46,894 nt of DNA from an uncultured Planctomycetales bacterium (GTDB lineage Bacteria > Omnitrophota > Gorgyraeia > Zapsychrales > JBDRMG01): positions 1-46,894 of the forward strand of contig CAYZIY010000013.1 of the NCBI GenBank assembly GCA_964478715.1, read 5' to 3'. Numbering within the stretch: position 1 is the stretch's first letter; every line of letters starts with the position of its first letter. This document shows positions 27,918-46,894 of the stretch, piece by piece. The notes under the pieces are model-generated. The model saw only the letters and a program-made list of their open reading frames with translations. It searched no databases and was not told where the DNA came from. A program made the translations under genes and the position numbers.

Positions 27918-27922
27918 AATAT

Positions 27923-29014
27923 CTAATTTGCCCGTCCGGTTAAACGTTCAAAAAGACTCGACTTGGGAGGCTCAACCTCTTGTGATTTAGCAGACTCTTG
28001 GTTTGATTTCAATTTGATATTAGGGCGAAATCGTTCGGAAAGCTGTTGACCGGAACCGATCCGCCCGCTTCCGCCAGAAGACCCGCCTTGTTCTAAGTCC
28101 TGCCCACCCCTTTGATTGATTCCACCTGATTCCTCGCCACGACCACTTAAACCGCCTGATCCACCGGAACCAGCTGTCCTGCCACCTGATTCGCCAAAAC
28201 CTGTGCTGCCATCACCCGTTCCGCTAGCACCGACCCCATCACCAACACCACCGACATCACCTACGGCTCCTGCAGCACCTGCGACTTCCGCTTCTTCTTT
28301 TTGCAATCCTCCTGATTCTCCGGTGCTTCCACCTGATGTTCTAGATCCTACGGGACCACTGCCTGAATCCTGATCCCCCTGACTACTGCCTGATTCAAAA
28401 GTTTCATAGCCGATTTGAGTCTTGGCCATACCCTGCTCTAAAGCCAACGCTTGTTCTTCCGTCAAAATAGCATCGACCAGTATTTTTTTGACGGTCATCG
28501 CTGCCTTGACCTCTTCGGCGCTGGCTCTTTTCGGAGTAATATTCATTTTCACAACCTTAAGTAAATCATCTGAGGTATCTACTAAATATATAAACTTTGA
28601 AATACTTTCAAGCGTTCCGTCGCATTCCAAATTCGCGAAATATTCCAAGTAACCCAATTTTTCATAAAAATCGGCCGGATTCACCTTAATCAGAGTAACG
28701 CCGGCTTCACTGGCCAAACGTTCTATCCTCTCAAGAAAGTTAGCCACAATCTTCTCTTCTGTCAAATAAGAATTTGCATAATATTTACTGAACTCCCCGT
28801 TTTCTCTAAGAATCGTTTTTTTGTGAGACAAAAAACGTAAATCTCTGGCCATCAGTCTTTTTTGCTGCTCCATCTCCATATCAAGTTCGTTTAAACGAGC
28901 AGCAACCGGCCCCAGAAAGAGGCGATCAAAAAGAGCTAGTAAAACAAAACCTAGAGAAACATAAAGCAGCTTTTTCTCTTTCCCTGAAAGCTTTTCCATA
29001 AACTTCTGAATCAC
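27923..29014 (-). CDS. PilO/GspM-like protein with a Gly/Ser-rich disordered C-terminal tail
   Basis: LSGKEKKLL + TM + coiled coil + LASEAGVTLIKVNP and GTLESISKFIY; position after PilM/N. Confidence 0.75.
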   Translation of the reverse strand: MIQKFMEKLSGKEKKLLYVSLGFVLLALFDRLFLGPVAARLNELDMEMEQQKRLMARDLRFLSHKKTILRENGEFSKYYANSYLTEEKIVANFLERIERLASEAGVTLIKVNPADFYEKLGYLEYFANLECDGTLESISKFIYLVDTSDDLLKVVKMNITPKRASAEEVKAAMTVKKILVDAILTEEQALALEQGMAKTQIGYETFESGSSQGDQDSGSGPVGSRTSGGSTGESGGLQKEEAEVAGAAGAVGDVGGVGDGVGASGTGDGSTGFGESGGRTAGSGGSGGLSGRGEESGGINQRGGQDLEQGGSSGGSGRIGSGQQLSERFRPNIKLKSNQESAKSQEVEPPKSSLFERLTGRAN

Positions 29015-29052
29015 ATCGAACCCCTTAAATGATACAATATACTCATTGATTA

Positions 29053-30564
29053 TTATTCTTCATTTTCTTCTTTTGATCCTGACTCTACCTGCTCTTCTTC
29101 TAAGCCTTCATTTTCTTTGGTGCCTTCAAGACGTAAAGACATCTCAAATGCCGAAACATCTTTTCCTCTTTCCTTGGTTGCAGTTGTGGATGTTGTTTTT
29201 ACATTCTTGAAAAGCTCGGCATCTTCAAGCGGATCGACTAAAGAAAAAACTGTTGACATCGACTCGGAAGTCCCCTGTAGAATAATCTTTCCAGTTTCAT
29301 CGAGCGTAATGCTTTTAAAATAAATTTCGTTAGGAACAAGACGGTAGAGCTCATCCAGAATATCCAGAGCTGTCAATCGACTGTTAAGATAATCCTTAAT
29401 AATCAGTGTTTTATTAAAAACTTCTTCCAGTTCTTGAACTTCCTGCCGCTTGGGAGCATGTCGACGCTTGAGTTCATTCAGTGCGGAGCTCTTGAAATGA
29501 AGTTTGCTAATAAACATAAGAGAGAGACAGATTAAAAGAACAACCGAGAAGATCCCGCATTTAGCCACCTCTTTGCCTTGCTGCTCAATGGATTTTTTGA
29601 TCTTGATTTCCTCAGGAAGAAAATCCATTTGACAATCTTTGGCGTGTACCATCGGAGCGACAACGCTGAGGAAGGAACCTCCACCCAATTCCTCAATTTT
29701 CTCTTTGATATCTGAGCTCACCTTTAAATTATCAAGATAAGAGACAATATTAACTTCCGCTTGCAATTTATCTTTAAGTTGGGGCTGAAGTTCTTTGATT
29801 ATTTCATTGTCGCAAGTCAAAACATAAGATAAAGGCATCTGTTCAATGTCCTCGCTTCTATACGATTCAACAGAGCTTTTGAGCTCGTCCAATAGTTTAT
29901 TTCTGGCATTTTGAGCATCTTCCTCTAGCAACTTCATTCCCACAGGAATACTGCGGCATGCAATCACTTTGGACTGAAAAGCAATAGAGAAATCCGTTTC
30001 CTGATCAGAGATATCAATGATTCCCATCGGACCCTTAGCGGCCGATTCCGCGCAAACGTGGGAATACAAAAAGGAGATCGCTTCCGGAACAAGCAGAATC
30101 TTGTCCACTTCCAGGCCGACAGCTTCTAAAATATTTATCTGTTTCTTGATGCTGCTGCGGTTGATAATCACCAACAGAATCTTGGAATAATTTCTTTGAA
30201 AAACGCCGATGCTCAGATAGTCGATCACGATTTCTTCACGGGAAAACGGCGTATGCCTTCCGGCCTGGAGATTAATGATGGACTTGATTTCTTCGGGATT
30301 AACAGAAGGTATTTCGATATTTTTCGTCGTAGTGACGCTTGAGGGAATAGCGCAAATGGTACTGGCCTTTTTGACTTTAAAATCGGCCAGTATTGTTTTG
30401 ATAATCTTGGGAATCTCATCTTCCGGAAGACCCCTGATATCCCGGCTTGCAATATGCGCAACCTGATCTATGCCGGAAGAATTCTTGAGATGCGCTAGGC
30501 GCAGATTCTCATCCTCGATAGCCACACAAATTTTATCTTTTCCTACGTTAAGAAAATTCATCAA
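29053..30564 (-). CDS. PilM-PilN fusion (GspL-like)
   Basis: Actin-like N-terminal domain (IIDIS, RSIPVG), MDFLPEE linker, TM helix, PilN-like C-terminus (LVPNEIYFKSI, LQGTS). Confidence 0.82.
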   Translation of the reverse strand: MMNFLNVGKDKICVAIEDENLRLAHLKNSSGIDQVAHIASRDIRGLPEDEIPKIIKTILADFKVKKASTICAIPSSVTTTKNIEIPSVNPEEIKSIINLQAGRHTPFSREEIVIDYLSIGVFQRNYSKILLVIINRSSIKKQINILEAVGLEVDKILLVPEAISFLYSHVCAESAAKGPMGIIDISDQETDFSIAFQSKVIACRSIPVGMKLLEEDAQNARNKLLDELKSSVESYRSEDIEQMPLSYVLTCDNEIIKELQPQLKDKLQAEVNIVSYLDNLKVSSDIKEKIEELGGGSFLSVVAPMVHAKDCQMDFLPEEIKIKKSIEQQGKEVAKCGIFSVVLLICLSLMFISKLHFKSSALNELKRRHAPKRQEVQELEEVFNKTLIIKDYLNSRLTALDILDELYRLVPNEIYFKSITLDETGKIILQGTSESMSTVFSLVDPLEDAELFKNVKTTSTTATKERGKDVSAFEMSLRLEGTKENEGLEEEQVESGSKEENEE

Positions 30565-30584
30565 ATTACTCAGTTTTCTTCTTT

Positions 30585-31589
30585 TTAATCTTCCTGCCAG
30601 TAAACAATCTTTTTTTGAGATGCATCATAAATACAACGAATTTTGACACTCTCATTACTATTATAAAGTTTAGCATTGCTTTCGATAGAATAAAATTCAG
30701 ATTTCTCACTCAGCAAATCTTTTTCCATCAAACTGCGAATTTGTATTTCTTCTCTCTCGTTAAGCGGCTCCTCCTGCTGAATGAGCTCAATAATGGTTTC
30801 AGCACATGGAAAAACGATATCATCCCCCGTATAGTCAATTCCATCCGGCCCCCGGCGAATTCTTAAGATCTTATCGGCGACGTCGTGATCTAGCCCTAAG
30901 GCAATGAACACTGTTTTTTGAGCTGTATTGATATTTATTTTCCCGGAACCATAAACGGTTAAATATTTTAGCAACCGCGCAGAAACATCTTCAGTCACAC
31001 CCTTGACGAGCTTGAGTTCATCCGGAATTTCAAAAGGTTCATTTTTGGCCGGATACGGATACTCTAAATTATCATAAAAATCATCACTGAAGAACCCCAC
31101 AATCTCGCTTTCGCCTATTTCTCTCCAATCAATAATCGAATCGGCCAATCTGGTTGCCCTCACCTCATCATATTCCAGAATTAGCTTGATCAATCTTTTT
31201 AGGATATCCTTGGAAGCAACGTTGATATTAATTTTTCTTTCTTCGTCAATCAATCCATATTGTTTTGAGCCATTTTCGCTAACGGCAATACTTGCTTTGG
31301 CTCTAGGCGATGAAATATTCGAGAAATCCGATAAATTGCTATGGCGTATCATTTTACTGGGCACGGAATAGGAACCGCCATGAAAATCGTAATCCGCGTT
31401 TAAAATACCGATAGCTTTTCTGATCCCCGAAGCCGCACTTGTCTGCAAAATAGTTCTATTCTCAATCCGCTCAACAAATTTCAATTTCTGATGGATACTA
31501 AGTCCCATCGAAACAGCAAAAAGCGAAAGAACCACTAGTGTCCAAAGACTGAAAAAAAGAATTGTCCCTTTTTGATTCATCACCATCAA
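30585..31589 (-). CDS. gspK: Type II secretion minor pseudopilin GspK-like
   Basis: KGTILFFSLW N-terminus, DEERKININ, IIDWR, ELKLVKGVT and GKININTA motifs. Confidence 0.9.
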   Translation of the reverse strand: MMVMNQKGTILFFSLWTLVVLSLFAVSMGLSIHQKLKFVERIENRTILQTSAASGIRKAIGILNADYDFHGGSYSVPSKMIRHSNLSDFSNISSPRAKASIAVSENGSKQYGLIDEERKININVASKDILKRLIKLILEYDEVRATRLADSIIDWREIGESEIVGFFSDDFYDNLEYPYPAKNEPFEIPDELKLVKGVTEDVSARLLKYLTVYGSGKININTAQKTVFIALGLDHDVADKILRIRRGPDGIDYTGDDIVFPCAETIIELIQQEEPLNEREEIQIRSLMEKDLLSEKSEFYSIESNAKLYNSNESVKIRCIYDASQKKIVYWQED

Positions 31590-31597
31590 TCTTTTCT

Positions 31598-32224
31598 CTA
31601 TCCACCGACAGGAATGTCGAATATTCTCTCCATTTCTTGCTGTTTCTTTTCATCGTACGTCACGATAACTCGAAGTGTATGGGGAATGATACCTAAAGCC
31701 TCATCCTTCAGATGAAATTCCCCTTGATGATCATAAACATATTGAATCTTGAAAGACTTCACCGATGGCAACAAAATCCGCTCAGACTGAAACTTTTTTC
31801 TCAAAGCCTGCGCGTAATTAGCTTGGCGCCGAACAAGCTGATTTTTGTAAGGAAGAAACTGGTACTGAATCCGCCCGATCTGAGAAACATAGGAATCACG
31901 GGGTAAGCCCAACTTACGGTCTGCTTGGGTCGTCACAATGGCAGCAAATGAAATTCTTTCCGAAGTTCCCTCAAATGGAATTTGAGAATAATAAACCATC
32001 TTATTGAAATCCGAGCGCATCCTCTCTAAGCTAAGAACGATATCTTCTTCAAAAGTTATTTGATTACTTTTTTGCCAGATTTTCAGTCCATTATTGAATG
32101 CCTGAAAAACAGCCGAGCCGATTAAGGCAATCAATCCCGTAACCAGCATGGCTTCCATTAAAGTAAAGGCGCGAATATCGCTTCGCTTAAACAATGGGTT
32201 GAAAATTGCACGGCTTTTATTCAT
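31598..32224 (-). CDS. Minor pseudopilin, GspJ-like
   Basis: Prepilin motif RAFTLMEAMLV; located before gspK. Confidence 0.8.
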   Translation of the reverse strand: MNKSRAIFNPLFKRSDIRAFTLMEAMLVTGLIALIGSAVFQAFNNGLKIWQKSNQITFEEDIVLSLERMRSDFNKMVYYSQIPFEGTSERISFAAIVTTQADRKLGLPRDSYVSQIGRIQYQFLPYKNQLVRRQANYAQALRKKFQSERILLPSVKSFKIQYVYDHQGEFHLKDEALGIIPHTLRVIVTYDEKKQQEMERIFDIPVGG

Positions 32225-32621
32225 ACGGTATTATGATAGAATATTGCTGGAGTTTTTTCTGATACCGGCCTTCCCGCCAAGATATCTCGAGCATGAGTTC
32301 GAGAATACCTTCTTTCTGGCCAACATTTTTTATCGAGACATCATAGAGAAAATTAACTGGTGACCCGTCAATTGTTATTTGTTGAGCTTCTTGGGCAAAA
32401 GCTAAAGGAATTTCCTTAGATACCGCATAGACTTTGGCAATAGAAACAGCTCTGTTCTGGAGAAGCTGAAAAGCTTGGAGTCTATAATTAATATGACGGG
32501 CCGTATGAAGAGAGATAAAAAATGAGCGGTAAATCGATGTGATTCCGAAAGCCAAAATAGCAACAGCCACCATCAGTTCAAAGAATGTGAGGCCCTTATG
32601 ATCATCTTTTTCAAATTTCAT
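32217..32621 (-). CDS. Minor pseudopilin, GspI/PilV-like
   Basis: Prepilin motif KGLTFFELMVAVAILAFG; short length. Confidence 0.8.
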   Translation of the reverse strand: MKFEKDDHKGLTFFELMVAVAILAFGITSIYRSFFISLHTARHINYRLQAFQLLQNRAVSIAKVYAVSKEIPLAFAQEAQQITIDGSPVNFLYDVSIKNVGQKEGILELMLEISWREGRYQKKLQQYSIIIPYE

Positions 32622-32630
32622 GAAAACAGC

Positions 32631-33086
32631 TTAACTCTTTCCCCAATTCGTAATATCATCTTCGCTGGTTGTCTCGTCGCGTCCTTTGGAATAAAGATCA
32701 TAATCGGCCCTGTTTTCACCGGGTGAAACATATTGATAGGGGCGTCCCCAGGGATCGATTGGCTCACGCTCCGAATAGGGACCATTCCAATTGGAAGGAA
32801 TGGGGCTGTTTGAAGGTTTCTTGAGTAAGGCCTTCAATCCTTGGCTCGTCGTAGGGAAGAAACCATTATCCAATTCATACAGTTTTAAAGCTGTTGCGAT
32901 ATTATTCTTGATATCCGCTTCAGCAGCTGCCCGTTTTGCCTGCTCAGAACGGCCGGTCAGTCGAGGAATCACCATAGCGGCCAAAGCCCCGATGATAACA
33001 ACAACCAGCATAATTTCAATTAAAGTAAAAGCCTTATTTGGGAATCTTGAAAATGATTTTTTCTTCTTTTGAATTTCTAAGCTCAT
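32631..33086 (-). CDS. gspG: Major pseudopilin GspG
   Basis: AFTLIEIMLVVVIIG, ALKLYELDNG, NWNGPY and DPWGRPYQY; start moved to ATG 33086 after SD AGGAGG. Confidence 0.95.
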   Translation of the reverse strand: MSLEIQKKKKSFSRFPNKAFTLIEIMLVVVIIGALAAMVIPRLTGRSEQAKRAAAEADIKNNIATALKLYELDNGFFPTTSQGLKALLKKPSNSPIPSNWNGPYSEREPIDPWGRPYQYVSPGENRADYDLYSKGRDETTSEDDITNWGKS

Positions 33087-33096
33087 CACTCCTCCT

Positions 33097-33903
33097 TTAA
33101 TGCAATAAATAATTGCTCCATCTCTGCTGAAGCTCTTCAATAGACTTCGCGCCTGAAGGATAGGCGATGCGTAAAGCCTCTTCAAAATTTCTTCCGTCTC
33201 TTAATTGCCGGCATAAACGTTTAAAGGCACTGCGCCCATACTTTGTAATCAAAAACTCGACAATCGAAACGCTTTGGGCGTAAAACAAGGCAACAATATC
33301 CTGATTGTTCTGCTGGTATACATTCATCGAAAACAAAGTCTTTAAAGGAAGCTGCCTGTTCTGCTTGACAACGCTTTTCATCAATTGACGAGCCATTATT
33401 AGCCTACTTTCTTGCTGCAATTGGGCCACCCCTTCATCAAACCATACGGGAATAGGTTTGTCAAATCCGATAAAATCCCTGAGGATCAGATGGCTGATTT
33501 CATGCGGCAATAATCCCTTAATGAAATCTTCCTCCTGACGATATGTCACAATTAATCGACTTTGGAATAATTTTGAGTGACTGCTAGAATAGCCCCGAGA
33601 CCAAAGAGGCTGCCCTGTTTTTTCTGCAAACTGCTTTTGATTCTTAAAAATAATGATTTTCACACGCTCATTCCATGTCCAAAAATTGGTATAGCGCGAA
33701 TAGCCAATCTGAGACGCAATGGATCTGTAATATTTCTCGGCTTGACGAAGAATTTTTCTTGCCGTTTGGCTGTCCTCTTTATAAGAATAGAAAACGGCAA
33801 AATGATCACTTTTCTCCTGAAGCCACCCGGAAGCAAAAGCCGTTCCTTCATGATAAACATAGAGAAGCAATAAACACAATACCAGGAAAATCTTTTTGAG
33901 CAT
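33097..33903 (-). CDS. Exported gluzincin (peptidase MA-like) metallopeptidase
   Basis: Signal peptide from ATG 33903; HEISH plus WFDEGVAQ; FYAQSVSIVEFL. Confidence 0.85.
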   Translation of the reverse strand: MLKKIFLVLCLLLLYVYHEGTAFASGWLQEKSDHFAVFYSYKEDSQTARKILRQAEKYYRSIASQIGYSRYTNFWTWNERVKIIIFKNQKQFAEKTGQPLWSRGYSSSHSKLFQSRLIVTYRQEEDFIKGLLPHEISHLILRDFIGFDKPIPVWFDEGVAQLQQESRLIMARQLMKSVVKQNRQLPLKTLFSMNVYQQNNQDIVALFYAQSVSIVEFLITKYGRSAFKRLCRQLRDGRNFEEALRIAYPSGAKSIEELQQRWSNYLLH

Positions 33904-33907
33904 AGGG

Positions 33908-35119
33908 CTATCGTCCGGCCAGCAAATCCATTTGAAAAATCGGCAACAACATGGCCATGACCATGAAACCAACAATCAAGCCGATCGTCAAAATAAGAAC
34001 GGGCTCCAAAAGCGCGGTAAGCGTCTTCAGTGATTCCTCGATATCCTGCTCATAAGTTAAAGCAATATCGGCAAGTGTTTCCTCCAGCGATCCAGACTCC
34101 TCGCCAACGATAATCATATGGCTAATGAGAATCGGAACCACGGAAATATTTTTCAGACTTTCCCCAAACGAAGAGCCGGATTCGAGATTCTCCATACCTT
34201 TACGTATGTTTGCTCTAATCACATTGTTATGAATAGTAGCGGAAGCTATCGATATCGCTTTCAATAAAGGCGCACCGCTTCTAAGAAGAAGTTCGAGAGT
34301 CTTAGAGAACCGGGATATTTCTGTCTTTTTGATTAATTGTCCGAAAAGCGGGACAGTAAGCAAAAACCGATGGAACAATAATCTTCCGGAATTTGTCTTG
34401 GCCCATTTGATCAAAAAGAGGACAGCAAAGAAGATCCCTAAACTGATGACAATCCAATAATCGCGTATTCCTTGACTGAGAGTAATCATGATACGGGTTG
34501 CCAAAGGAAGCTGTTGATCTATCTGTGAGAAAAGCGGCATCACCCGTGGCATTACATTAGTTAAAATAAATATTACTGTAGCAATTCCCACAAAAAGCAT
34601 CAAAAGAGGATAAGCTAAAGCGACGCGCACTTTTGAGTAAATCTCGTCCTGGGATTTGAGATGGGCAGATATCCTCTGAATCATCTCGGATAATTGCCCT
34701 CCCTCCTCACCGGCCTGAACCATAGCAATGTAAAGCGTTGAAAAGACTCGGGGATATTGACTGAGACAATCGGAAAGATTATAACCATCTTTGATCTTAG
34801 CGCTAACATCAGCCAATATTCTCTTCAAATCATTATTTTGAGTTTGTTGCGATAAAAGATGAAAGGCTTTTAAGATGGGGACACCGGTCTTAAGAAGATT
34901 GGCCAGCTGGCGACTCATCAGATAAGTTTCTTTCAAAGACACTCTCTCTGACCTAAAAATCCTTCGAGATCTTGTTTTGAACTGCTCCTCCTGTACCGAT
35001 AAAGGCGTTAGCCCCATATGATTAATAATATCAATTGCCTCTTCTTTGTTTTGAGCTTCCAAGCGACCTTCTTTGATTTCTGTTGAACCTTTTTTAGCTT
35101 TGTATAAAAAAGACGGCAT
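33908..35119 (-). CDS. gspF: Type II secretion inner-membrane platform protein GspF/PilC
   Basis: RQLANLLKTGVPI, AGEEGGQL, ALAYP, GEESGSL and LLEP motifs. Confidence 0.95.
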   Translation of the reverse strand: MPSFLYKAKKGSTEIKEGRLEAQNKEEAIDIINHMGLTPLSVQEEQFKTRSRRIFRSERVSLKETYLMSRQLANLLKTGVPILKAFHLLSQQTQNNDLKRILADVSAKIKDGYNLSDCLSQYPRVFSTLYIAMVQAGEEGGQLSEMIQRISAHLKSQDEIYSKVRVALAYPLLMLFVGIATVIFILTNVMPRVMPLFSQIDQQLPLATRIMITLSQGIRDYWIVISLGIFFAVLFLIKWAKTNSGRLLFHRFLLTVPLFGQLIKKTEISRFSKTLELLLRSGAPLLKAISIASATIHNNVIRANIRKGMENLESGSSFGESLKNISVVPILISHMIIVGEESGSLEETLADIALTYEQDIEESLKTLTALLEPVLILTIGLIVGFMVMAMLLPIFQMDLLAGR

Positions 35120-35124
35120 ATTGT

Positions 35125-37350
35125 TTATCCTCGAGTATCTTTTTTCGAATTAACAAAATTTTCTATCTTTACCCGATCCGCGCTTGAAATATCTAAATAA
35201 TAAACCGCGATATTGAGTGTATCACTCAGCTCATCTTCTTCTACGCGACAAATTTTTGCCAGACAGCCGATGCCATCTTTCTTTTCATCCAGCTGTATCC
35301 GTAAATCAACAATTGAGTCCACTTCAATCGAATGACTAGATGAAAAAAGGAGACCACCGGCACTGATGTTTTTGGTGATTGATGAATGCTCGTAATTATC
35401 TCCTTTATACGTCGTCGTTTCAACATCGCTCTCTTGGGGTTGAAATATTTTATAACGGATTTTGACCTTCTCGTTGATCCGCGGATAAATTCGTTTCTCG
35501 TGATCCAATTTAGCCGATTGCATCACGTTCCTTCTTATTGTACGGAATTGATAAACTGTTTTATTATCAAGGCGATTTTCCTTTTTTGCCTTATTTTCAA
35601 CCTGGTCATCTGGCGGAATCCCCTCGGTGGGATATTGTTCTTTACTGGTTACATTGATCACCTCGGCCGGTGTCGTCAGCCCCTGAATAACCTTCCGCCA
35701 GCCGTCTTGCCGCAAAGTCTTCATGCCGCTTTTTATGGCAATCTTTTTGATATATTCTATGCGAGGCCTTTCTAAAATAGCCGAGCGAATTTCTTCATTC
35801 ATCACCATCATCTCGTGAATGGCTGTCCGTCCAAAATAACCGGTTTGGTTGCATTGATCGCAACCTTTTCCGTGATAAAATTTTATACTATTATCGTCAA
35901 TTTTAAGAGCCTCAGCTATTTCGTCTTTTATCTCTAAAAAAGGTGCTATCGTTTCTTCTTTACAGTGGGGGCAAATCATACGCACCAAACGTTGAGCAAC
36001 AAAAGCCTCAACGCTAGAGGCGACCAGATAGGGCTCAAGCCCCATATCGATCAAACGGGTAATCCCGCTGGTGGCATCATTGGTGTGCAATGTCGAAAAA
36101 ACTAAATGTCCCGTTAAGGCGGTACGAATCGCGATTTCGGCGGTCTCCAAATCACGCACCTCGCCGACCATAATAATATCAGGATCATGCCGTAGAATAC
36201 TTCTTAAACCACGCGCAAAATTGAGATCTACTTTAGGATTCACCTGAATTTGAGTAATCCCTTCCATCTCATACTCTACCGGATCTTCAATGGTGATGAT
36301 TTTACGCTCGAGCGTATTGATCTCATTGAGGCAAGCATAAAGAGTCGTTGTCTTTCCGCTGCCAGTAGGGCCTGTCAAAAAAACAATCCCATGAGGCTTG
36401 GCGATAATGTTTCTGAATTCCTGAACATTCTCCTTATTGAGCCCCAGTTTTTGTAAACTAAAAAGTCTTACTTTGGTCGGCAAGATACGAATCACCATAC
36501 TTTCCCCTGAAGGCGTAGGGATAGTTGAAACTCTCAAATCCAAATTCTGCTCCTTGGTTTTGACCACAGCACTTCCGTCTTGCGGCACACGTTTCTCGAC
36601 AATACTCAAACCCGCCATTATTTTGATCCTTGAGAGAATAGGAAAAATGAAATGTCGGATTTGGACGGGTAAATTCGCGTCCATGAGGACTCCGTCGATC
36701 CGATAACGGAAGCGAACTTTATCACGGTAAGGTTCGATATGAATATCGGTGGCTCTTTTTTTATACGCTTCCAAGATAATCTGGTTAACCAGATTAATGA
36801 TGGAAGCATCTTCGCTTGCCTTCTCCAAATCTTCAATGCTCTGCCTTTGATTGGCCTCAGCGATTTTAACACGTTCGGGATCCTTGCTGAGAATGCGGTC
36901 CACCGTATCGGCTGCCAGACCGTAATACTTCTTAAAGACATCGAGAATTTGAGATTCCTTGGCCAAAACCAATTTGGGTTGCAAACCTAAGTAGACTCGA
37001 ATTTCATCTTGCATCTTAATATCTAAAGGAACAGCCGTCGCAATCTTTATTTCCTTTCCCTCTATTGCCAGCGGCATAAATTTATAATACCAAGCAAATT
37101 TTACGGGAATCTTCTTTATGACTTTTTGATCGATAATGAATTTGTTCAAATCGACTATTTCTAAGTTTAATTTCCGTGAGAGAACCTTAATGATCTCGTT
37201 TTCACTGACAAATCCCTGACGGACAAGATAGCTGGTTAGGGTTTCTCTGGCGCTTTGAGCTTTGGCTTGAGCCCGAGCGATATCTTCCATCGAGATAAGT
37301 TTATTTTCAATAAGAATATTGGCTAATGTTTTTTCAGATGAATTGGTCAT
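35125..37350 (-). CDS. gspE: GspE/PilB assembly ATPase with a C-terminal PilZ domain
   Basis: GPTGSGKT, TIEDPVE, LRHDPDIIMVGE, STLHTN, CPHC/CDQC; C-terminal KRIYPR and NISAGG. Confidence 0.95.
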   Translation of the reverse strand: MTNSSEKTLANILIENKLISMEDIARAQAKAQSARETLTSYLVRQGFVSENEIIKVLSRKLNLEIVDLNKFIIDQKVIKKIPVKFAWYYKFMPLAIEGKEIKIATAVPLDIKMQDEIRVYLGLQPKLVLAKESQILDVFKKYYGLAADTVDRILSKDPERVKIAEANQRQSIEDLEKASEDASIINLVNQIILEAYKKRATDIHIEPYRDKVRFRYRIDGVLMDANLPVQIRHFIFPILSRIKIMAGLSIVEKRVPQDGSAVVKTKEQNLDLRVSTIPTPSGESMVIRILPTKVRLFSLQKLGLNKENVQEFRNIIAKPHGIVFLTGPTGSGKTTTLYACLNEINTLERKIITIEDPVEYEMEGITQIQVNPKVDLNFARGLRSILRHDPDIIMVGEVRDLETAEIAIRTALTGHLVFSTLHTNDATSGITRLIDMGLEPYLVASSVEAFVAQRLVRMICPHCKEETIAPFLEIKDEIAEALKIDDNSIKFYHGKGCDQCNQTGYFGRTAIHEMMVMNEEIRSAILERPRIEYIKKIAIKSGMKTLRQDGWRKVIQGLTTPAEVINVTSKEQYPTEGIPPDDQVENKAKKENRLDNKTVYQFRTIRRNVMQSAKLDHEKRIYPRINEKVKIRYKIFQPQESDVETTTYKGDNYEHSSITKNISAGGLLFSSSHSIEVDSIVDLRIQLDEKKDGIGCLAKICRVEEDELSDTLNIAVYYLDISSADRVKIENFVNSKKDTRG

Positions 37351-37365
37351 AATGAAGATGAAAAA

Positions 37366-39742
<2,377 letters not shown>

Positions 39743-39757
39743 ATTCGAATAATGAAA

Positions 39758-40501
39758 TTATGCGCCTTCAATCTTATCTTTCTTTCTAGTGGAGGCCTCG
39801 ATGATCAGATTTTTGATGCTCCCGTCCAGAGCTAAACTGCCGAATTTTAACATGATTCCGGCGACCATTTGCTTATCCGTTGTAGCGCTAACTGTAATTG
39901 ATCTACCCAGCTTTTTTTCAATAATATCGAAAATCCTTTGATTGATCGATTCGTCAAGAGATCCTGCGGTCACAATCTCAACGGTTTTAACATCTGAAGA
40001 AATTTGTTTCATATCCACATTTTCCAGATCCTTGATAAATTCCTCCCATAATCTTTCCTCCAAAATACCGCGCGCTTCTTCGCTTAATATCTCGCATAAG
40101 ATTTCGGAGGCAAAGGTAACCGTCTTAATCTCAATCTCTTTTTCAATATCTTTGCGGATTTGATCCTTGGTTCTTTGGGCTTTGTCGATAATCTCCTCAC
40201 CCTCGTTCCGGGCCTTTTGAATCATCTGCGCACGTTCTTCTTTAGCTTTTTCATTAGCCTCATCGATCATCTTTTTGGCTAACTCTTCCGCTTCTTTGCG
40301 GCGCTTCTCCAGCTCTTCATTGGCTTCTTTAATTTTGCGATCCAGTTCGGCCTGTTTGGCACGCGCTTCTTCAGTCTCCTTATTCAAACGTTGAACCGCT
40401 CCTTCGGTACTTGAAAAAAAGACTTGCTTCATGACAAAAATAATCACTCCAAAAACAACTGTCTGTAAAACAAAAATTTTGATAAGAAGCATCCAGTTCA
40501 T
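39758..40501 (-). CDS. Fo subunit b fused to the delta/OSCP C-terminal domain
   Basis: N-terminal TM helix, long charged coiled coil, then VEIVTAGSL...MVAGIMLKFGSLALDGSIK. Confidence 0.85.
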   Translation of the reverse strand: MNWMLLIKIFVLQTVVFGVIIFVMKQVFFSSTEGAVQRLNKETEEARAKQAELDRKIKEANEELEKRRKEAEELAKKMIDEANEKAKEERAQMIQKARNEGEEIIDKAQRTKDQIRKDIEKEIEIKTVTFASEILCEILSEEARGILEERLWEEFIKDLENVDMKQISSDVKTVEIVTAGSLDESINQRIFDIIEKKLGRSITVSATTDKQMVAGIMLKFGSLALDGSIKNLIIEASTRKKDKIEGA

Positions 40502-40532
40502 CGTATCCCTTTCTGATTTTTTCTTTCATTCA

Positions 40533-40775
40533 TTATTCGGCATACGTCTCAAGCATATGATAAAAAATAAGCAAAAGACCAAAGCTGATCACTTCGACAA
40601 AAACTAATTTGAGAAAAATCCCAGTTTGAATGGCCGGAGTCTTGCTCGGATAATAAGATAATTTCTTTAGCATCTTGTATCCTAAAATAGCCGCCGCTGT
40701 GCAGGGAATTGCAATCATGATAAAGATAATCGTGATCAGGGTCAGTCCGGTTTGTAGAGTTTCGCTTTGCTCCAT
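40533..40775 (-). CDS. Second, divergent c-subunit-like hairpin protein
   Basis: Aligns without gaps to the neighbouring c subunit (P..A.LGY..K.L...PS...I..G...L.FVE.IS). Confidence 0.7.
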   Translation of the reverse strand: MEQSETLQTGLTLITIIFIMIAIPCTAAAILGYKMLKKLSYYPSKTPAIQTGIFLKLVFVEVISFGLLLIFYHMLETYAE

Positions 40776-40781
40776 TTGAGT

Positions 40782-41003
40782 CTACCTTCCAAAAAGCTGA
40801 AAGATAATGAGAATGGCAACGATGGAAATCGCCTCAACGAAAATCAAAAGAACAATCATTCCCATAAAAATCTTGGACGCGGCCGAAGGATTCCTTCCCA
40901 AGGCTTTTATAACCGAATAGCCCAAAACCGCAATGACCATCGATGGCCCCATAACGGCAATAAACATGATCGCAATAATAATAAAGGTTTCGGCTAATCT
41001 CAT
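40782..41003 (-). CDS. atpE: Fo subunit c (divergent)
   Basis: 73-aa two-TM hairpin, GRNP loop, conserved Glu in FVEAI. Confidence 0.88.
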   Translation of the reverse strand: MRLAETFIIIAIMFIAVMGPSMVIAVLGYSVIKALGRNPSAASKIFMGMIVLLIFVEAISIVAILIIFQLFGR

Positions 41004-41009
41004 AATTTG

Positions 41010-41342
41010 CTAAACTTCCCCTTGCTCATCATCTTCTTTACCAAAAACCATATCTTCTTCTTTCCCCTCTTTTTCTTTCTTTTCTCTTTCTTCCTGCTCG
41101 ATCAGAACGATACAATCATTGGCAAAAAATCTTAAGATACCGACCTTGACAGGAACAGCATGCCGCCAGTTAATAATAATCTTGCTGTTCAACTGCAAAA
41201 TACCGATCACCGGATAGTGATAGGGCAAAATCTCATATTCTCCCTCATCGCCGGTAATAAACAAAGAATGAACCTCGTTTTCATAAACAAGACTGTCGGG
41301 CGTCATAATAGTGCATTTGAATGTTCCTTTATAGCGCGCCAT
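41010..41342 (-). CDS. atpC: F1 epsilon subunit (beta-sandwich domain only, with an acidic tail)
   Basis: IMTPDSLVYENEV, GDEGEYEILPYHYPVIGIL motifs. Confidence 0.85.
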   Translation of the reverse strand: MARYKGTFKCTIMTPDSLVYENEVHSLFITGDEGEYEILPYHYPVIGILQLNSKIIINWRHAVPVKVGILRFFANDCIVLIEQEEREKKEKEGKEEDMVFGKEDDEQGEV

Positions 41343-41353
41343 TGTTACAGACC

Positions 41354-42904
41354 TCAGGTCTTGACATCCTCTTTCTTACTCGTGGCTTGATCAAGAGCAT
41401 CCTGCCCCACCATATCATCTTCTGATTCATCCTCTTCTTCTTTGGGCCGCTTGGCCTGAACATCTTTGAGATACTGAGTGCAAAGATCTTCCATCTCCTT
41501 GGCAATATCATCGTCCAATTTTTTCTTCTCTCTCAAATTTTTAATTAATTCAGGATTTTTCTGATTGGCAAAATCAAGAATCTCCAGCTGAAATTTCTTA
41601 ACTTCGTCTCCGCTCATCTCCAGAAGAATCTTTTTGTTGTAGGCAAAAAGAGTCAAGGCAAGAACATCCAAAGAAACCGGAGAATCTTTATCCTGACGAA
41701 TGATTTCAGTTAGAATCTCACCGATTTTCATTTGCTGCTGCTGGCCTTCGCTTTGTCCGGATGTTTTCAGTCGGGAGACTCGAAGAAGCTCGCGGTATTG
41801 GATATAGTCCAGTCGCAAAGAGCCCGATAACTTTTTGACGATAGGCCACTGCACCTTGCTTCCCACGCGTGAAACCGAAAGGCCCAAGTCTACAGCCGGT
41901 TTTTGCCCTTCACCGAAAAGGGGAGTGCTTAAATAGATTTGCCCATCGGTCATGGAAACAAGATTCGAAGGAATGTATCCGGTTAAATCCCCCTCTAAAA
42001 GCTCAACGATCGGGAAAAACGTGATGGAGCCACCCCCGCGCTCTTTATCCATAAAAGCCGCACGCTCAATCATTTTCGAGTGCAGATAAAAAATGTCTCC
42101 CGGATACGAGTCGCGACCCGGAGGACGCGCCAGCAATAGGGAAATCTCCCTGTAACACCAGGCATGCTTGGTGAAATCGTCAAAGCCGATAAAGACATGT
42201 TTTCCCTGGTTCATCAAATGCTCAGCAATGGAACAGGAAACGTAGGGAGCCAGATACTGCTGTCCAGGAGGAGCAGAAGCGGGTGCCGAAACAATCATCG
42301 AATATTCAAAACAACCGTTATCCTGAAAAAGCTGAACAACCTTGGCTAAAGCGCTTCGGGCTTTCCCGATACAGCAATAGATGCAGTAAACATCCGTGTT
42401 TTTTTGATTCAGAATCGTATCGGTCACAATGGTAGTTTTTCCGGTCATCTTATCACCAAGAATCAACTCGCGCTGACCGAGCCCGACGGGAATCATGGTA
42501 TCCAAAACCTTAATGCCCGTTTCCAGAGTTTTGCATAAGGGCTCGCGTGCCAAGATGGGAGGAGCATCAATAAAAACCGGAGCCATTTTGTCCCATTCCA
42601 AACGACCCAAACCATCCAAGGTCTCGCCTAAAGGATTGATGATGCGTCCGATAAGTTTATTACCCACAGGAACATAAAAAGGTTCCAGCGATGCAACCGC
42701 CTTATCGCCTGTTTTAATATTCTCGGTTTCTTTAACAATAAGAACCTGGGCTTCCTTTTCATCAAATCCAATGATCTGCCCTAAAGTTCCGTATCCAAAT
42801 TTAATCAACTGGCCGCTTAAACAATGCTTGAATCCCGTCACAATGACAATACAACCCCGGATACAGCGAACACGCCCAATTTCTGTATATCGTAAATCAC
42901 CCAT
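41354..42904 (-). CDS. atpA: Divergent F1-type ATPase alpha subunit
   Basis: GQRELILGDKMTGKT, RPPGRDSYPGDIFYLHS, TDGQIYL and SVSRVG motifs; SD GGAGG. Confidence 0.95.
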   Translation of the reverse strand: MGDLRYTEIGRVRCIRGCIVIVTGFKHCLSGQLIKFGYGTLGQIIGFDEKEAQVLIVKETENIKTGDKAVASLEPFYVPVGNKLIGRIINPLGETLDGLGRLEWDKMAPVFIDAPPILAREPLCKTLETGIKVLDTMIPVGLGQRELILGDKMTGKTTIVTDTILNQKNTDVYCIYCCIGKARSALAKVVQLFQDNGCFEYSMIVSAPASAPPGQQYLAPYVSCSIAEHLMNQGKHVFIGFDDFTKHAWCYREISLLLARPPGRDSYPGDIFYLHSKMIERAAFMDKERGGGSITFFPIVELLEGDLTGYIPSNLVSMTDGQIYLSTPLFGEGQKPAVDLGLSVSRVGSKVQWPIVKKLSGSLRLDYIQYRELLRVSRLKTSGQSEGQQQQMKIGEILTEIIRQDKDSPVSLDVLALTLFAYNKKILLEMSGDEVKKFQLEILDFANQKNPELIKNLREKKKLDDDIAKEMEDLCTQYLKDVQAKRPKEEEDESEDDMVGQDALDQATSKKEDVKT

Positions 42905-42996: not shown

Positions 42997-44388
42997 CTAA
43001 GACTCTTCCTTCCCCTCGCCTTCGGGATTTTCGGCCGGTTTGATTTCTTCTATGGTTCCCCCTGTACTTATGGCTATCTCCTCCCCCATAACGCGGGCTT
43101 TTTTCCACCATGTGAAAAAGTGAACAATCGTAATAACAGCTACAAAAATAAGAATGCCCCAGATAATACGCCAAGTATGTGTTAAGGTCGGCTTCTTACC
43201 GAATATTGCTTCGGAAAGAGAGGCGATACCGCGTAAAGCCTTTAATTTTTGCAGAATATTTTTTACTTTGCTTTTTTCCAACTCTTCTAACTTCTTAGCC
43301 TTGACGCGAGCGAGCATTAGCTCGATCTTCTCAATCTCCAGACTAATCTCTTCAAATCGATGCCGATTAATGCGAAAGGCGCCGATATATTTTCGCATAT
43401 TAGCTTTAGTTTCCTGCGATTCTCTAATAGCATTGAGTAGGCTAAAAATTTTATTCCCGATAAACTGAGCTCCCGCTTCGTATTCGGAACCCTTGATTTC
43501 TTCGAGAGCGCGTTCAGTTCGCTCAGCCATCGAATCGACCTTGTCAAGAGAAATGCTCCAAATATCTTTCATCCGAATGGTATATTTTCTCGTCTCACCA
43601 GGTTGAAATTCTTCTTCCTTAAGAAGATAGGATTGCTGTCGATCTTCATCCCATCGAACATCAAAACCCTGGCTATCCAAAATATGCTCAGACCGTATTT
43701 CTTTTGGAAGGTAATGTTTCTGCGTGATCATTCTGGTCTCTTTTTGAGAAGGATTTTTAACTTCAATAATAAAATTCACAGATTCCTGTGTCACCTCCCT
43801 GATACGCTCGGAGGTAAAGTATTCAAAAGAAAAAGCATTTTTCCGAATTTGATCGATATCAGCCAAATAAGCCCGGTATTCTTCAATCCGACGATTGATA
43901 TCCTCAGAATAACCCTGCTGCTGACTCAAAACATAATCAAGTTTGTTCATCATCTTCTCGCCAATCATTTGGGCGGACTCAAAATACTCGGTACCTTCCA
44001 GCTGTCGGATATTCTCTTCAATCTGTCCCCTGATAATATCAATTTCCTCCTGAGGAATTCTCCAGACATCGCGCACTTCCACTTTGATCTTTTTGGATTC
44101 TTTGGGCTTTAAGGTAACGGTCCCTTTGAGAAAATATCGCGACTGGTCGATATCGTAATCCAGCGAAAGAGGCCCGGCATTGACAATATCTTTCGGATCC
44201 AATTCTCGGGGAAGATAATATTTCACAGATGTTTCTTTTTCTTGGGTCTCGCTGGGATTAACCGCCACAAAATTAATAAAGATATTCTGGGCATAACATT
44301 TCGATGAAGAAATAGCAAATAATACATACAGTGCTATTGATAAAAAAATGGATTTCTTGATAAAATGAAATAAAATTCCTTGATTCAT
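42997..44388 (-). CDS. Exported protein with a C-terminal membrane anchor, built of two ~170-aa repeats
   Basis: Signal peptide; NPS..YLP.E...D(V/I)W.I...G(T/S)EY..AQ.IG.K occurs twice; TM helix TWRIIWGILIFVAVITIVHFFTWW. Confidence 0.8.
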   Translation of the reverse strand: MNQGILFHFIKKSIFLSIALYVLFAISSSKCYAQNIFINFVAVNPSETQEKETSVKYYLPRELDPKDIVNAGPLSLDYDIDQSRYFLKGTVTLKPKESKKIKVEVRDVWRIPQEEIDIIRGQIEENIRQLEGTEYFESAQMIGEKMMNKLDYVLSQQQGYSEDINRRIEEYRAYLADIDQIRKNAFSFEYFTSERIREVTQESVNFIIEVKNPSQKETRMITQKHYLPKEIRSEHILDSQGFDVRWDEDRQQSYLLKEEEFQPGETRKYTIRMKDIWSISLDKVDSMAERTERALEEIKGSEYEAGAQFIGNKIFSLLNAIRESQETKANMRKYIGAFRINRHRFEEISLEIEKIELMLARVKAKKLEELEKSKVKNILQKLKALRGIASLSEAIFGKKPTLTHTWRIIWGILIFVAVITIVHFFTWWKKARVMGEEIAISTGGTIEEIKPAENPEGEGKEES

Positions 44389-44421: not shown

Positions 44422-46894
44422 TTATTCTCCGCTTTCAAAATAAGTCTTGATCACAACGTCCTGGGTTTCTACCGACTCTTTAATGGCATTGATCTTGATA
44501 TTGATCTCATTTAGCTTTTCATCCAACATTTGAGCTGTCACTGTTGTGCCCTTTTCGATCTCTTCCACCCCTAGCCCGGCCTCTTCACCTGCTTCACCCG
44601 TTTTTCCCTGGGCGCCTACCACACCGCCGTCGATCAAACCAATCGCTCCCGCACTTTCATTAACAAAATTGGCTAAAGAATTGAGAATCTCCGTAGCTAT
44701 ACCGTTAGACTCGACTTGGCTTTCCGAAATAGCCTCAGTGGCTATCTTGAGATTTTCCAAATATTCTTGCATTTTCTTTATTTTCTCATAAACAACGGGA
44801 GTCTTGCCTTTCGCACCAAGTTCCGTCCGTATGTCCTGAGCTTCCTGGAGAGCGGCACCGGCATTGCTCTTTGCCGTATCGACGTTTTCTTCTATATTAG
44901 GAAGCTCTGAGAGAGTACCAAATATCGTTGCCGGATCTGTTTCCCCGTCGCTGCCGATGAGCGTCTCGATTTCTCCCACGCTTGTGTCAATTGTATTGAG
45001 TGCGCCAAAAATACTTGTTGTTTCTGTATCCGCCGTATCTCCAATATTTGTTGAAATAGAATCAACAGTTGTCAGAATGGTATCAACATTGGCAGATAAT
45101 GTCGCACTTCCGCCAATGGAATTGACAGCCGTTAAGACCTCAGCCACTTTTCCGAAAAGGGTGTTTTGACTAGAAGTGTCACTACTATCACCAACGGCAG
45201 TTGTCAAGCTATTGACCGCTGTTAATATATCATTTACATTACTTACCAGCGTTCGGGCATTATCCGCCAAATAAGCAATATCATTCCAATTGACATTGGC
45301 CCGACTCATGGAAGCGATATCACTCCAGTTAACACCCGCTGTGCTGGAAATGCCCATATCATTCCAATTAATTCCTGTACCAGACATATAGGAGATATCA
45401 GCCCAATTTATTCCCGCATCAGTCATGACATTAATATCACCCCAGTTAATGCCTGTATCGGTCATCATATCCAAATCCGACCAATTGATACCCGCATCGG
45501 AAAGAATATCAATATCCGCCCAGTTGATACCCGTATCAGTCAAGACATCCAGATCCGACCAGTTAATGCCTGTTTTTGTCATTACACCGATATCGCTCCA
45601 ATTAATTCCTGCATCACTCAAGTCGTTAAGGTTATCCCAATTGACTCCGGCTTCTGTCAGCTCATTCAATTCAATCCAGTTGACCCCCATCTCGGACATG
45701 ACGCGCAAATCATCCCAGTTAATTCCGGCATCAGAGAAGATTTGGATATCATCCCAGTTAATACCAGCATCGGACAGTTTGCCAATATCGCCCCAATTAA
45801 TCCCTGTTTTTGACATCGCATCTATATCCGTCCAATTAATACCTAAGTCCGATAACTCATAAATACTGGTCCAGTTTATTCCTATATCGCTCATCACATC
45901 CAGATCATTCCAATTAATCCCTGCATCAGAGAGGACATCGATATCGGCCCAATTCAAACCTGTATCACTTAGAACATCTAAATCACTCCAATTGATGCCA
46001 CTGCCTGAGAGAATATCTATATCCATCCAGTTAATACCTAAATCACTCATTACCTCTATGTCTAGCCAATTAATGCCAGAGCCTGACATCTCGCCAACAT
46101 CGCTCCAGTTGATACCTGCATCACTCATTGTATCTATATCCAACCAATTGATTCCTGCGTTGTGCATAACCGAAAGGTCATTCCAGTTGATACCTGCATC
46201 AGTAAGAATATCGATATCCGCCCAGTTGATTCCCTTGTCACTCATCACATCTAGATCGCTCCAATTGATACCCGTTTTAGATAATAACTCCACATCAGAC
46301 CAGTTGATCCCCGTGTCGCTGAGGACATCAAAATCGCTCCAGTTAATCCCGGCATCACTGAGCATATCGATATCATTCCAGTTGATACCGGTGTCGCTCA
46401 AGACATCCAAATCTTCCCAGTTAATCCCAGCTTTAGACAGGATATCAATATCGGCCCAGTTGATACCGGCGTCACTTAGAACATCGAGATCCGCAAAATT
46501 GATGCCAGTGTCACTTAAAACGTCGATATCCGCCCAGTTGATGCCCGCATCAGACAAGATATCCATATCGACCCAGTTGATGCCGGTGTCAGATAAAACA
46601 TCGATATCCAACCAGTTAATGCCGGCATCCGTTAGCACATCTAAGTCACTAAAGTTAATGCCAGCATCACTCAAAATGTCGATATCCGCCCAGTTGATGC
46701 CGGTATCACTCATCACATCCAGATCGCTGAAGTTGATACCGATATCCGAGAGGACATCCACATCAGCCCAGTTGATACCCGCATCACTCATCACATCGAG
46801 ATCACTAAAGTTGATTCCGGTGTCAGATAAAACATCAATATCCGCCCAGTTGATGCCGGTATCGCTCATCACATCCAGATCCGCAAAATTGATG
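44422..46894 (-). CDS. Large acidic tandem-repeat protein, 5' end outside the window
   Basis: Frame stays open to the window edge (INFADLDVMSDTG...); about 41 13-aa repeats followed by a ~285-aa helical C-terminal region. Confidence 0.9.
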   Translation of the reverse strand, partial: INFADLDVMSDTGINWADIDVLSDTGINFSDLDVMSDAGINWADVDVLSDIGINFSDLDVMSDTGINWADIDILSDAGINFSDLDVLTDAGINWLDIDVLSDTGINWVDMDILSDAGINWADIDVLSDTGINFADLDVLSDAGINWADIDILSKAGINWEDLDVLSDTGINWNDIDMLSDAGINWSDFDVLSDTGINWSDVELLSKTGINWSDLDVMSDKGINWADIDILTDAGINWNDLSVMHNAGINWLDIDTMSDAGINWSDVGEMSGSGINWLDIEVMSDLGINWMDIDILSGSGINWSDLDVLSDTGLNWADIDVLSDAGINWNDLDVMSDIGINWTSIYELSDLGINWTDIDAMSKTGINWGDIGKLSDAGINWDDIQIFSDAGINWDDLRVMSEMGVNWIELNELTEAGVNWDNLNDLSDAGINWSDIGVMTKTGINWSDLDVLTDTGINWADIDILSDAGINWSDLDMMTDTGINWGDINVMTDAGINWADISYMSGTGINWNDMGISSTAGVNWSDIASMSRANVNWNDIAYLADNARTLVSNVNDILTAVNSLTTAVGDSSDTSSQNTLFGKVAEVLTAVNSIGGSATLSANVDTILTTVDSISTNIGDTADTETTSIFGALNTIDTSVGEIETLIGSDGETDPATIFGTLSELPNIEENVDTAKSNAGAALQEAQDIRTELGAKGKTPVVYEKIKKMQEYLENLKIATEAISESQVESNGIATEILNSLANFVNESAGAIGLIDGGVVGAQGKTGEAGEEAGLGVEEIEKGTTVTAQMLDEKLNEINIKINAIKESVETQDVVIKTYFESGE
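45280..46894 (-). repeat. 39-bp / 13-aa coding tandem repeat, consensus SD(A/T)GIN(W/F)xD(I/L)D(V/I)(L/M)
   Basis: GINW/GINF recurs every 13 residues with extensive synonymous variation. Confidence 0.95.

Follow-up and report, generated by a model that had tools for sequence, protein, structure and literature searches.

Clusters of genes for a non-respiratory, "symbiotic" F-type ATPase have been described beside type-4a pilus genes in every class of the Omnitrophota (Seymour et al., 2023, PMC10066038), and neither a c subunit nor an a-subunit nor a rotor is mentioned in the main text of that paper. In Mycoplasma, Type 2 and Type 3 F1-like X0 ATPases have been described as a second F1-like motor that is non-respiratory and has no subunit a (Beven 2012, PMC3369863; Berlureau 2026, PMC12994834). 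Here we analyze a cluster of the former kind that lies in a 46,894-nucleotide (nt) stretch of DNA (contig CAYZIY010000013.1 of assembly GCA_964478715.1, from an uncultured bacterium of the Omnitrophota order Zapsychrales); this whole stretch is referred to below as the window. The combination of a c ring and an a-subunit is what defines F-type ATPases, and the enzyme encoded here keeps the ring and the stalk and has no a-subunit gene. In addition, the gene of its ring subunit, c1, is followed by a second small open reading frame (ORF), c2. In the literature we found no description of two c subunits, or of a missing a-subunit, in Omnitrophota. We find that c2 is a homolog of subunit c that is restricted to a single order and evolves under purifying selection, and we lean, with slightly more confidence than doubt, toward the interpretation that c2 is a fast-evolving tandem duplicate of c1 in an a-less, non-respiratory Omnitrophota ATPase and joins the c1 ring as a specialised paralog. 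All genomes used for comparison are metagenome bins, and the absences reported below hold for the genomes searched.

c2 Is a Divergent Homolog of Subunit c

The genes c1 and c2 lie in tandem on the minus strand, separated by 6 nt. An earlier note on this DNA had read them as divergent paralogs of subunit c that align without gaps, and both parts of that reading were borne out. BLASTP aligned the two proteins with 19 of 51 residues identical and 0 gaps (E 3e-10), and hhalign matched profiles of their orthologs over 69 columns with a probability of 97.6% (E 3.5e-12), using 19 c2 orthologs (the over-long L011 omitted) and 18 c1 orthologs (the over-long L019 and the cut L013 omitted). Window c1 carries G19-P20-S21, the loop R37-N38-P39 and E57, and window c2 carries the loop Y41-Y42-P43-S-K-T-P-A-I-Q50 followed by K56, E61 and S64. 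E61 is found 18 residues past P43, just as E57 is found 18 past P39, so that c2 has the carboxylate of the second transmembrane (TM) helix at the place expected of a subunit c, whereas the R-(Q/N)-P loop of subunit c is replaced by Y-Y-P. The glutamate in both proteins, the lysine five residues before that of c2, and the lack of GxGxGxG, the glycine packing motif of subunit c, from TM1 of both had been noticed before and are evident in the translations.

In family searches, c1 passed the PF00137 cut-off (29.9 bits against 24, E 6.9e-7) and matched c subunits in the PDB with a best E of 1.7e-4. c2 gave no match to PF00137 (ATP-synt_C) at E<=1; it had no other Pfam match except a chance-level one to YqhR (E 0.66), and it matched 0 NCBIfam families. 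When the c2 profile was run against all PDB sequences, five matches were obtained at E<=10, all of them F-type c subunits (best E 0.046). The profile similarity to subunit c, which had been set as a test beforehand, is therefore present, and it is visible only through c1 and through these weak PDB matches. The AlphaFold2 model of c2, made from a 19-ortholog alignment (predicted local distance difference test score, pLDDT, 86.8), is a two-helix hairpin with helices at residues 2-41 and 43-79, and c2 is thus predicted to share the subunit c architecture of two TM helices joined by a short polar loop. ATP synthase entry chains made up 40 of the 42 rows listed by Foldseek for this model, every one with E >1e-3.

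The c2 family has so far been named only in general terms. Its nearest ESM Atlas clusters consist of Omnitrophota "hypothetical protein" (scores 0.92-0.94), and the sole source name in the three-member cluster of a relative, P0008, is "uncharacterized membrane protein"; the family could now be annotated. Among 1.84 billion cluster representatives, the c2 profile found just 66 proteins at E<=1e-3. Sixty-five short matches were classified, 57 as c2-like and 8 as c1-like or double-hairpin c proteins, and the remaining match, of 2024 residues, was left out of the classification. One protein from this search (P0061, 140 residues, metagenome) holds two c1-like hairpins in a single chain. In another metagenomic protein (P0051, 93 residues) no stop separates the last residues of c1 from c2. 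P0061 and P0051 each form a cluster of one member and come from short contigs, and proteolipid fusion is a lead only. Among proteins of 201-2000 residues, the c2 profile detected no fused c2 form at E<=1e-3, which is weak evidence.

Contigs from a second run of the same study reproduce the DNA from 40300 to 40970, a span that takes in the whole of c2 and the larger part of c1, letter for letter. We conclude that c2 is a genuine protein-coding gene and a homolog of subunit c.

c2 Is an Order-Specific Duplicate of c1

c2 is present in 31 of 41 related genomes, always beside c1, and all 20 loci recovered from those genomes contain both genes. When species genomes were searched for the loop motif of c2, 30 loci were obtained, with c1 followed by c2 in 30/30, and the 80-residue ORF is thus conserved in related clusters. 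In a 401-genome sample of the phylum, 127 genomes matched the c2 profile, which also detects c1. Within the order of the window genome (n=56), at least two matches were found in 40 genomes, one in 2 and none in 14. Outside the order, 84 of the 85 positive genomes gave a single match; the other, G225, gave two, on two contigs. We fetched 14 of these 85 loci and found the same cluster with a single c gene in 14/14, and in each case this gene is c1, scoring 74-112 bits with the c1 model versus 33-56 with the c2 model. The gap between c1 and the following b-delta gene is 7-30 nt in 12 of these 14 loci and 130 nt in L100; L099 has a 258-residue ORF at this place, which has one TM segment and is not c-like. 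By these counts, c2 is confined to one order of Omnitrophota, that of the window genome.

All 30 c2 sequences fall into one clade of the c-subunit tree (Shimodaira-Hasegawa-like approximate likelihood ratio test, SH-aLRT, 100), whose stem measures 2.37 changes per site. The tree comprises 79 rows and 72 columns, and its fine detail is poorly resolved. The c2 clade is nested within that of c1 and is split from four canonical Omnitrophota c subunits at 99. We also considered derivation of c2 from a canonical F-type c of the same phylum and rejected it, as the tree separates the two at this value. A single duplication of c1 in the order of the window genome is the best explanation for the origin of c2.

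A Conserved Loop and Purifying Selection in c2

We counted residues over 50 distinct c1/c2 pairs (n=49 in some columns). G32 (50/50) and P43 (49/49) are invariant in c2, and P24 (48/50) and C25 (46/50) are nearly so. The TM1 consensus keeps small residues in the form C-x-G-x-A, with C25 followed by G27 (28/50) and by A or G at position 29 (42/50). The earlier note had raised a wider ring as a possible outcome of the lost glycines, an idea that stays a conjecture beside these retained small residues. The cytoplasmic loop reads as an aromatic residue followed by P-S-K-T-P-x-I-Q: position 42 is Y or F in 43 of the 50 pairs, position 44 is S in 42 and T in 6, position 45 is K in 40, and Q50 is kept in 47 of 49. 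Position 41 is R in 32/50 and Y in 6/50. The replacement of RNP by YYP, which the earlier note had pointed out, is thus correct for the protein in the window and does not extend to the family. At position 56, K is found in 36 of 49 pairs, with Q in 9, W in 2 and P in 2. Position 61 is E in 45 of 49, with Q in L061 and L086, M in L056 and V in L090. Among the 57 c2-like representatives, K56 is present in 27/54 and E61 in 40/51. Of the three features whose conservation had been proposed for checking, the glutamate is therefore mostly kept, the lysine is variable and YYP is rare, and these counts identify the loop, rather than Lys or YYP, as the hallmark of c2.

In the same pairs, G19, P20, G28, R37, N38 and P39 of c1 are each conserved in 50/50, and E57 in 49/50, with Ile in its place in the c1 of L093 (G356). 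Outside the order, c1 keeps the glutamate in 13 of 14 loci and has Ser in L100 (G075), and in the P0065 cluster, with 19 c1-like members, the TM2 carboxylate has also given way to Ser. Rare loss of the carboxylate from the main ring subunit fits a ring that would no longer need to carry ions, and such loss, occasional in c2 and rarer in c1, is relevant to the question of whether any ions are still bound by the ring.

Mean column identity amounts to 36% among the 19 aligned c2 sequences and to 86% among the 18 of c1. The median ratio of nonsynonymous to synonymous substitution rates (dN/dS) is 0.26 for c2 (29 sequences, 81 pairs) versus 0.064 for c1 (150 pairs), figures that are rough since dS is close to saturation (Nei-Gojobori, last 68 codons, dS 0.1-2, truncated L062 c2 dropped). 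On this measure, c2 evolves under purifying selection. Its per-site variability tracks that of c1 (Spearman 0.46, p 1e-4; 0.74 within TM1), and its TM2 shows a single conserved helical stripe of positions 50, 57, 61, 64 and 68, which was equalled by 1 of 2000 shuffles.

The rapid divergence of c2 could also be that of a decaying duplicate without a function of its own, and the loss of its glutamate in some lineages would agree with this. So would the nearest relative of the window genome, G001 (same family; L062 = L109, C18:18050-18700), where a 2-nt insertion in the loop region splits the c2 frame, with both halves still reading as c2. This frameshift may be an assembly error or a real, recent loss. 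Decay is, however, difficult to reconcile with an intact ORF across many families of the order, with several invariant or nearly invariant positions, with the dN/dS of c2 and with the helical periodicity of its conservation, and we regard it as barely plausible.

The Cluster Contains No Subunit a Gene

No a-subunit gene is present in the cluster, and a search of the window genome (94.6% complete) with PF00119 gave no match at E<=1. An a-subunit gene that scores over the cut-off occurs in 29 of the 41 relatives, at a site other than this cluster; that of G007 is part of a complete canonical atpBEFHAGDC-type operon. Of the 31 genomes with c2, eight have no a-subunit over the Pfam cut-off (G000, G001, G002, G019, G023, G031, G038 and G040), and six of the 41 genomes have subunit a and no c2. 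On another contig of the window genome (G000:C7:39386-41021), a V_ATPase_I-like frame, whose match is below the cut-off (E 1.9e-5), lies beside a 165-residue proteolipid frame; on sequence grounds these genes are the membrane sector of a V/A-type ATPase. Apart from the GspF-like gene after PilB, no multi-TM ORF was found in the 7 out-of-order clusters (of 14) that were scanned for hydrophobic segments, and neither the membrane helix of b-delta nor those of x463, a 463-residue protein encoded in the cluster, contain a conserved Arg or Lys that might stand in for the a-subunit arginine.

The earlier note had suggested that c2, with its in-membrane lysine, might take over a subunit-a-like role. 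In such an arrangement, c2 would be a stator-side element at the subunit a site, packing on b-delta or on the x463 helix and facing the rotating c1 ring, with K56 and E61 as a minimal ion or charge relay. The missing a-subunit gene, the single conserved face of c2 TM2 and a conserved H/N in the TM helix of x463 in c2-bearing lineages are all in keeping with this idea, for which we know of no precedent. The main reason to reject it is that sister lineages have the same machine and no c2: in 14/14 loci from other orders and classes, c1 is the only c gene of the a-less cluster, which indicates that a surrogate for subunit a is not needed. Furthermore, neither residue of the supposed relay is constant, K56 being as variable as described above and E61 being lost in 4/49 pairs and 11/51 representatives, and the b-delta membrane helix has no change specific to c2-bearing lineages. 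We therefore consider a role of c2 in the stator very unlikely.

A Mixed Ring as the Most Likely Arrangement of c1 and c2

A newly duplicated ring subunit would be expected to begin inside the ring. c2 appears to retain the hairpin of two helices with small residues on the inner one, the proline of the loop and, in most cases, the glutamate of TM2, and its per-site variability, which follows that of c1, and its single TM2 stripe resemble the constraints on a protomer of a ring. P0061, with its two c1-like hairpins, offers a related precedent. At the same time, c2 seems to have rebuilt its cytoplasmic loop and to have gained short extensions at both termini. We propose that c2 co-assembles with c1 as a minority protomer of the c1 ring, where its loop and termini would break the symmetry of the rotor and could offer a unique contact for the central stalk or another partner. 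It is the new, highly conserved loop together with the extra termini that leads us to view c2 as a symmetry-breaking minority protomer. The usual topology of subunit c puts the termini on the periplasmic side, and the additional residues of c2 would, if it shares this topology, be periplasmic as well. Hetero-oligomeric proteolipid rings would provide the precedent, and we consider a mixed c1/c2 ring the most likely arrangement.

Alternatively, c2 might not mix with c1, forming instead a ring of its own as an alternative rotor or serving as a small membrane helper for assembly of the c1 ring. The presumed role of AtpI, or of AtpR of N-ATPases, in c ring assembly would be the model for such a helper. 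Points that suit a separate role are the far weaker constraint on c2 than on c1 in column identity, the split frame in G001, and a c2 glutamate that is dispensable in L056, L061, L086 and L090, where c1 keeps its own. Nevertheless, the strongest conservation of c2 lies in the cytoplasmic loop (P43, S44, K45 and Q50), as would be expected for binding of a specific partner in the cytoplasm and less so for the passing contact of a chaperone. In addition, c2 keeps the hairpin and the small-residue TM1, and the match counts within the order indicate that c1 and c2 are present or absent together. Taken together, we consider separate roles for the two proteins unlikely.

Several observations also weigh against co-assembly of c2 with c1. 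c2 evolves about four times faster than c1, and in the window genome it has lost the R-N of the loop. The one-face conserved stripe in TM2 suits a peripheral position on the ring as much as a place within it, and the frameshift in G001 means that c2 may be dispensable. Finally, a comparison of Shine-Dalgarno sequences in the 30 loci gave no clear sign of lower c2 expression, matches of at least 5 bases preceding c1 in 16/30 and c2 in 9/30, a difference too weak to speak to stoichiometry.

Gene Cluster and Neighboring Genes

The features of the window are collected in Table 1.

Table 1. Features of the ATPase cluster and its surroundings in the window
Feature	Position	Strand	Description and evidence
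Type IV pilus / type II secretion-like genes	27009-35119	minus	Pfam: GspF/PilC, peptidase, pseudopilins G/J/K-like, PilM-PilN, PilO, TPR protein
PilB/GspE-type secretion ATPase with C-terminal PilZ	35125-37350	minus	PF00437 (E 1.2e-132), PF05157, PF07238
beta (catalytic)	37366-38865	minus	PF00006 (E 3.5e-68); TIGR01039 526.4 bits, cut-off 462.85
gamma	38891-39742	minus	PF00231 (E 8.8e-33)
b-delta fusion	39758-40501	minus	PF00430 at residues 10-139; PF00213 at residues 164-231 (profile 95-163 of 172)
c2	40533-40775	minus	80 aa; divergent subunit c paralog; ORF, BLASTP, hhalign, AlphaFold2
c1	40782-41003	minus	73 aa; subunit c of atypical ATPase; PF00137
epsilon	41010-41342	minus	N-terminal beta-sandwich only, with charged C-terminal tail; PF02823 (E 1.7e-9)
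alpha	41354-42904	minus	PF00006/PF00306; TIGR00962 499.4 bits, cut-off 484.45
x463	42997-44388	minus	463 aa, no known family; directly upstream of alpha; synteny and AlphaFold2
Repeat protein	44422-46894	minus	>816 aa, runs off contig end; ~16-residue units of S-D-x-G-I-N-W-x-D-x-D type; upstream of x463

The genes are ordered x463-alpha-epsilon-c1-c2-(b-delta)-gamma-beta, and beta is followed after 15 nt by PilB and then by the pilus/secretion genes. The complete order from x463 through PilB is found in 22 of the 30 c2-bearing loci; in the remaining 8, which contig ends truncate, no differing order is seen. Clusters of other orders (L099, L100, L104 and L105) are arranged as x463-epsilon-c1-(b-delta)-alpha-gamma-beta-PilB. 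The flanking of the cluster by x463 and PilB is kept in 22/30 and 14/14 loci within and outside the order, respectively. x463 occupies the same end in every cluster seen, directly before alpha except in some out-of-order clusters that place epsilon first. The adjacency of the cluster to x463 and PilB speaks for work in the envelope or at the pilus more than for the pumping of ions.

x463 gave no significant match in Pfam or NCBIfam. In its AlphaFold2 model (pLDDT 82.1), a hydrophobic helix at the N terminus is followed by two repeats of a beta-sandwich with three helices, by a helix of 65 residues and, at the C terminus, by a TM helix. Compared with solved alpha chains, alpha lacks about 20 residues at its start, residues 5-472 aligning with 24-492 of Bacillus PS3 alpha, and is consequently without the N-terminal delta-binding helix. 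Beta has an N-terminal extension of about 40 residues, its residues 41-495 aligning with PDB beta chains. The b-delta protein combines one N-terminal TM helix and the b coiled coil with the C-terminal part of delta only.

Epsilon has no C-terminal helical domain and ends instead in a charged tail of 20-25 residues, which is present in 26 of 29 loci of the order and mostly absent outside it. This tail makes epsilon a candidate partner of c2, although the coincidence concerns one lineage and thus counts as one event.

If the association with the pilus genes is taken further, the enzyme could be a rotary ATPase with a c ring and a peripheral stalk, lacking both subunit a and an ion path and acting as a purely mechanical actuator. 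Its rotor would turn against, or drive, membrane partners such as the anchor helix of x463 or the pilus platform, and in the order of the window genome c2, as the one asymmetric protomer or adaptor, would connect the ring with this load. We consider this distinctly unlikely; if true, it would constitute a new kind of output for an F-type motor.

For the repeat protein upstream of x463, the Pfam row "Ntox33" contains no stretch that passes alone. A large ORF without TM segments (562-2218 residues) also precedes x463 in 7 out-of-order loci that were scanned.

Comparison with Known Systems

The locus in the window corresponds to the clusters reported by Seymour et al. (2023): in an Omnitrophota genome, F-type alpha and beta genes have type-4 pilus genes at a distance of less than 10 kb, and genomes of this kind often carry a respiratory F- or V-type enzyme as well. 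Beyond the main text of that paper, we describe here the pair of c paralogs, the absence of subunit a, the fused b-delta protein and x463. The membrane sector is thus new relative to that text, and in one order it has gained a second, unannotated c-type protein. An a-less ATPase, co-encoded with a pilus machine, is widespread in this uncultured and probably host-dependent phylum.

The Mycoplasma Type 2/3 enzymes, as described by Beven (2012) and Berlureau (2026), are likewise non-respiratory, have no subunit a and have an alpha without the N-terminal helix. They also have, directly before alpha, a gene for a protein with a signal peptide and C-terminal anchor, which x463 resembles in position and topology. 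In contrast, the Mycoplasma clusters are reported to have seven genes, with no c, b or delta homolog and with a 12-TM protein; c1, c2 and b-delta are present in our locus, and no 12-TM protein was seen in the clusters scanned. Alpha and beta stay below the cut-offs of the Mycoplasma families (MMOB1660 396.5 vs 600 bits, MSC_0619 292 vs 520, MMOB1670 428.2 vs 850 and MSC_0618 404.1 vs 570) and pass those of ordinary atpA and atpD in NCBIfam. Hidden Markov model scores place alpha closer to ordinary atpA than to either MMOB1660 or MSC_0619.

N-ATPases have no separate delta either, and the best NCBIfam match of the long b-delta protein is to their b model, TIGR03321, covering residues 8-237 of 246. 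The epsilon-c-b-alpha-gamma order of N-ATPases recurs in some out-of-order clusters (L100 and L104). N-ATPases differ, however, in having subunit a and AtpQ/AtpR, whereas PF00119 has no match in the window genome, and all N-ATPase models remained below cut-off (TIGR03324 477.6 vs 750.5 bits, TIGR03305 456.8 vs 752 and TIGR03321 61.8 vs 224.7).

For c2 itself, the closest parallels are found among ion-pumping enzymes. The Na+ F1Fo ATP synthase of Acetobacterium woodii has a hetero-oligomeric c ring, and V-ATPases have c, c' and c'' proteolipids in their ring. PDB 4bem, which we take to be the A. woodii c ring, is among the PDB matches of c1 and among the Foldseek rows of c2. Like these systems, our cluster holds several c genes in one operon, c1 and c2 being adjacent in 30/30 loci, and one of the two, a putative minority paralog, is without the carboxylate in some lineages; in A. 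woodii and V-ATPases the minority paralog is part of the same ring. The odd subunit of A. woodii, on the other hand, consists of two hairpins fused together, in contrast to c2 with its one hairpin and rebuilt loop, and the A. woodii and V-ATPase enzymes have an a-subunit and pump ions. If c2 does reside in the c1 ring, it would represent a natural F-type case of a symmetry-breaking rotor subunit in a non-chemiosmotic motor.

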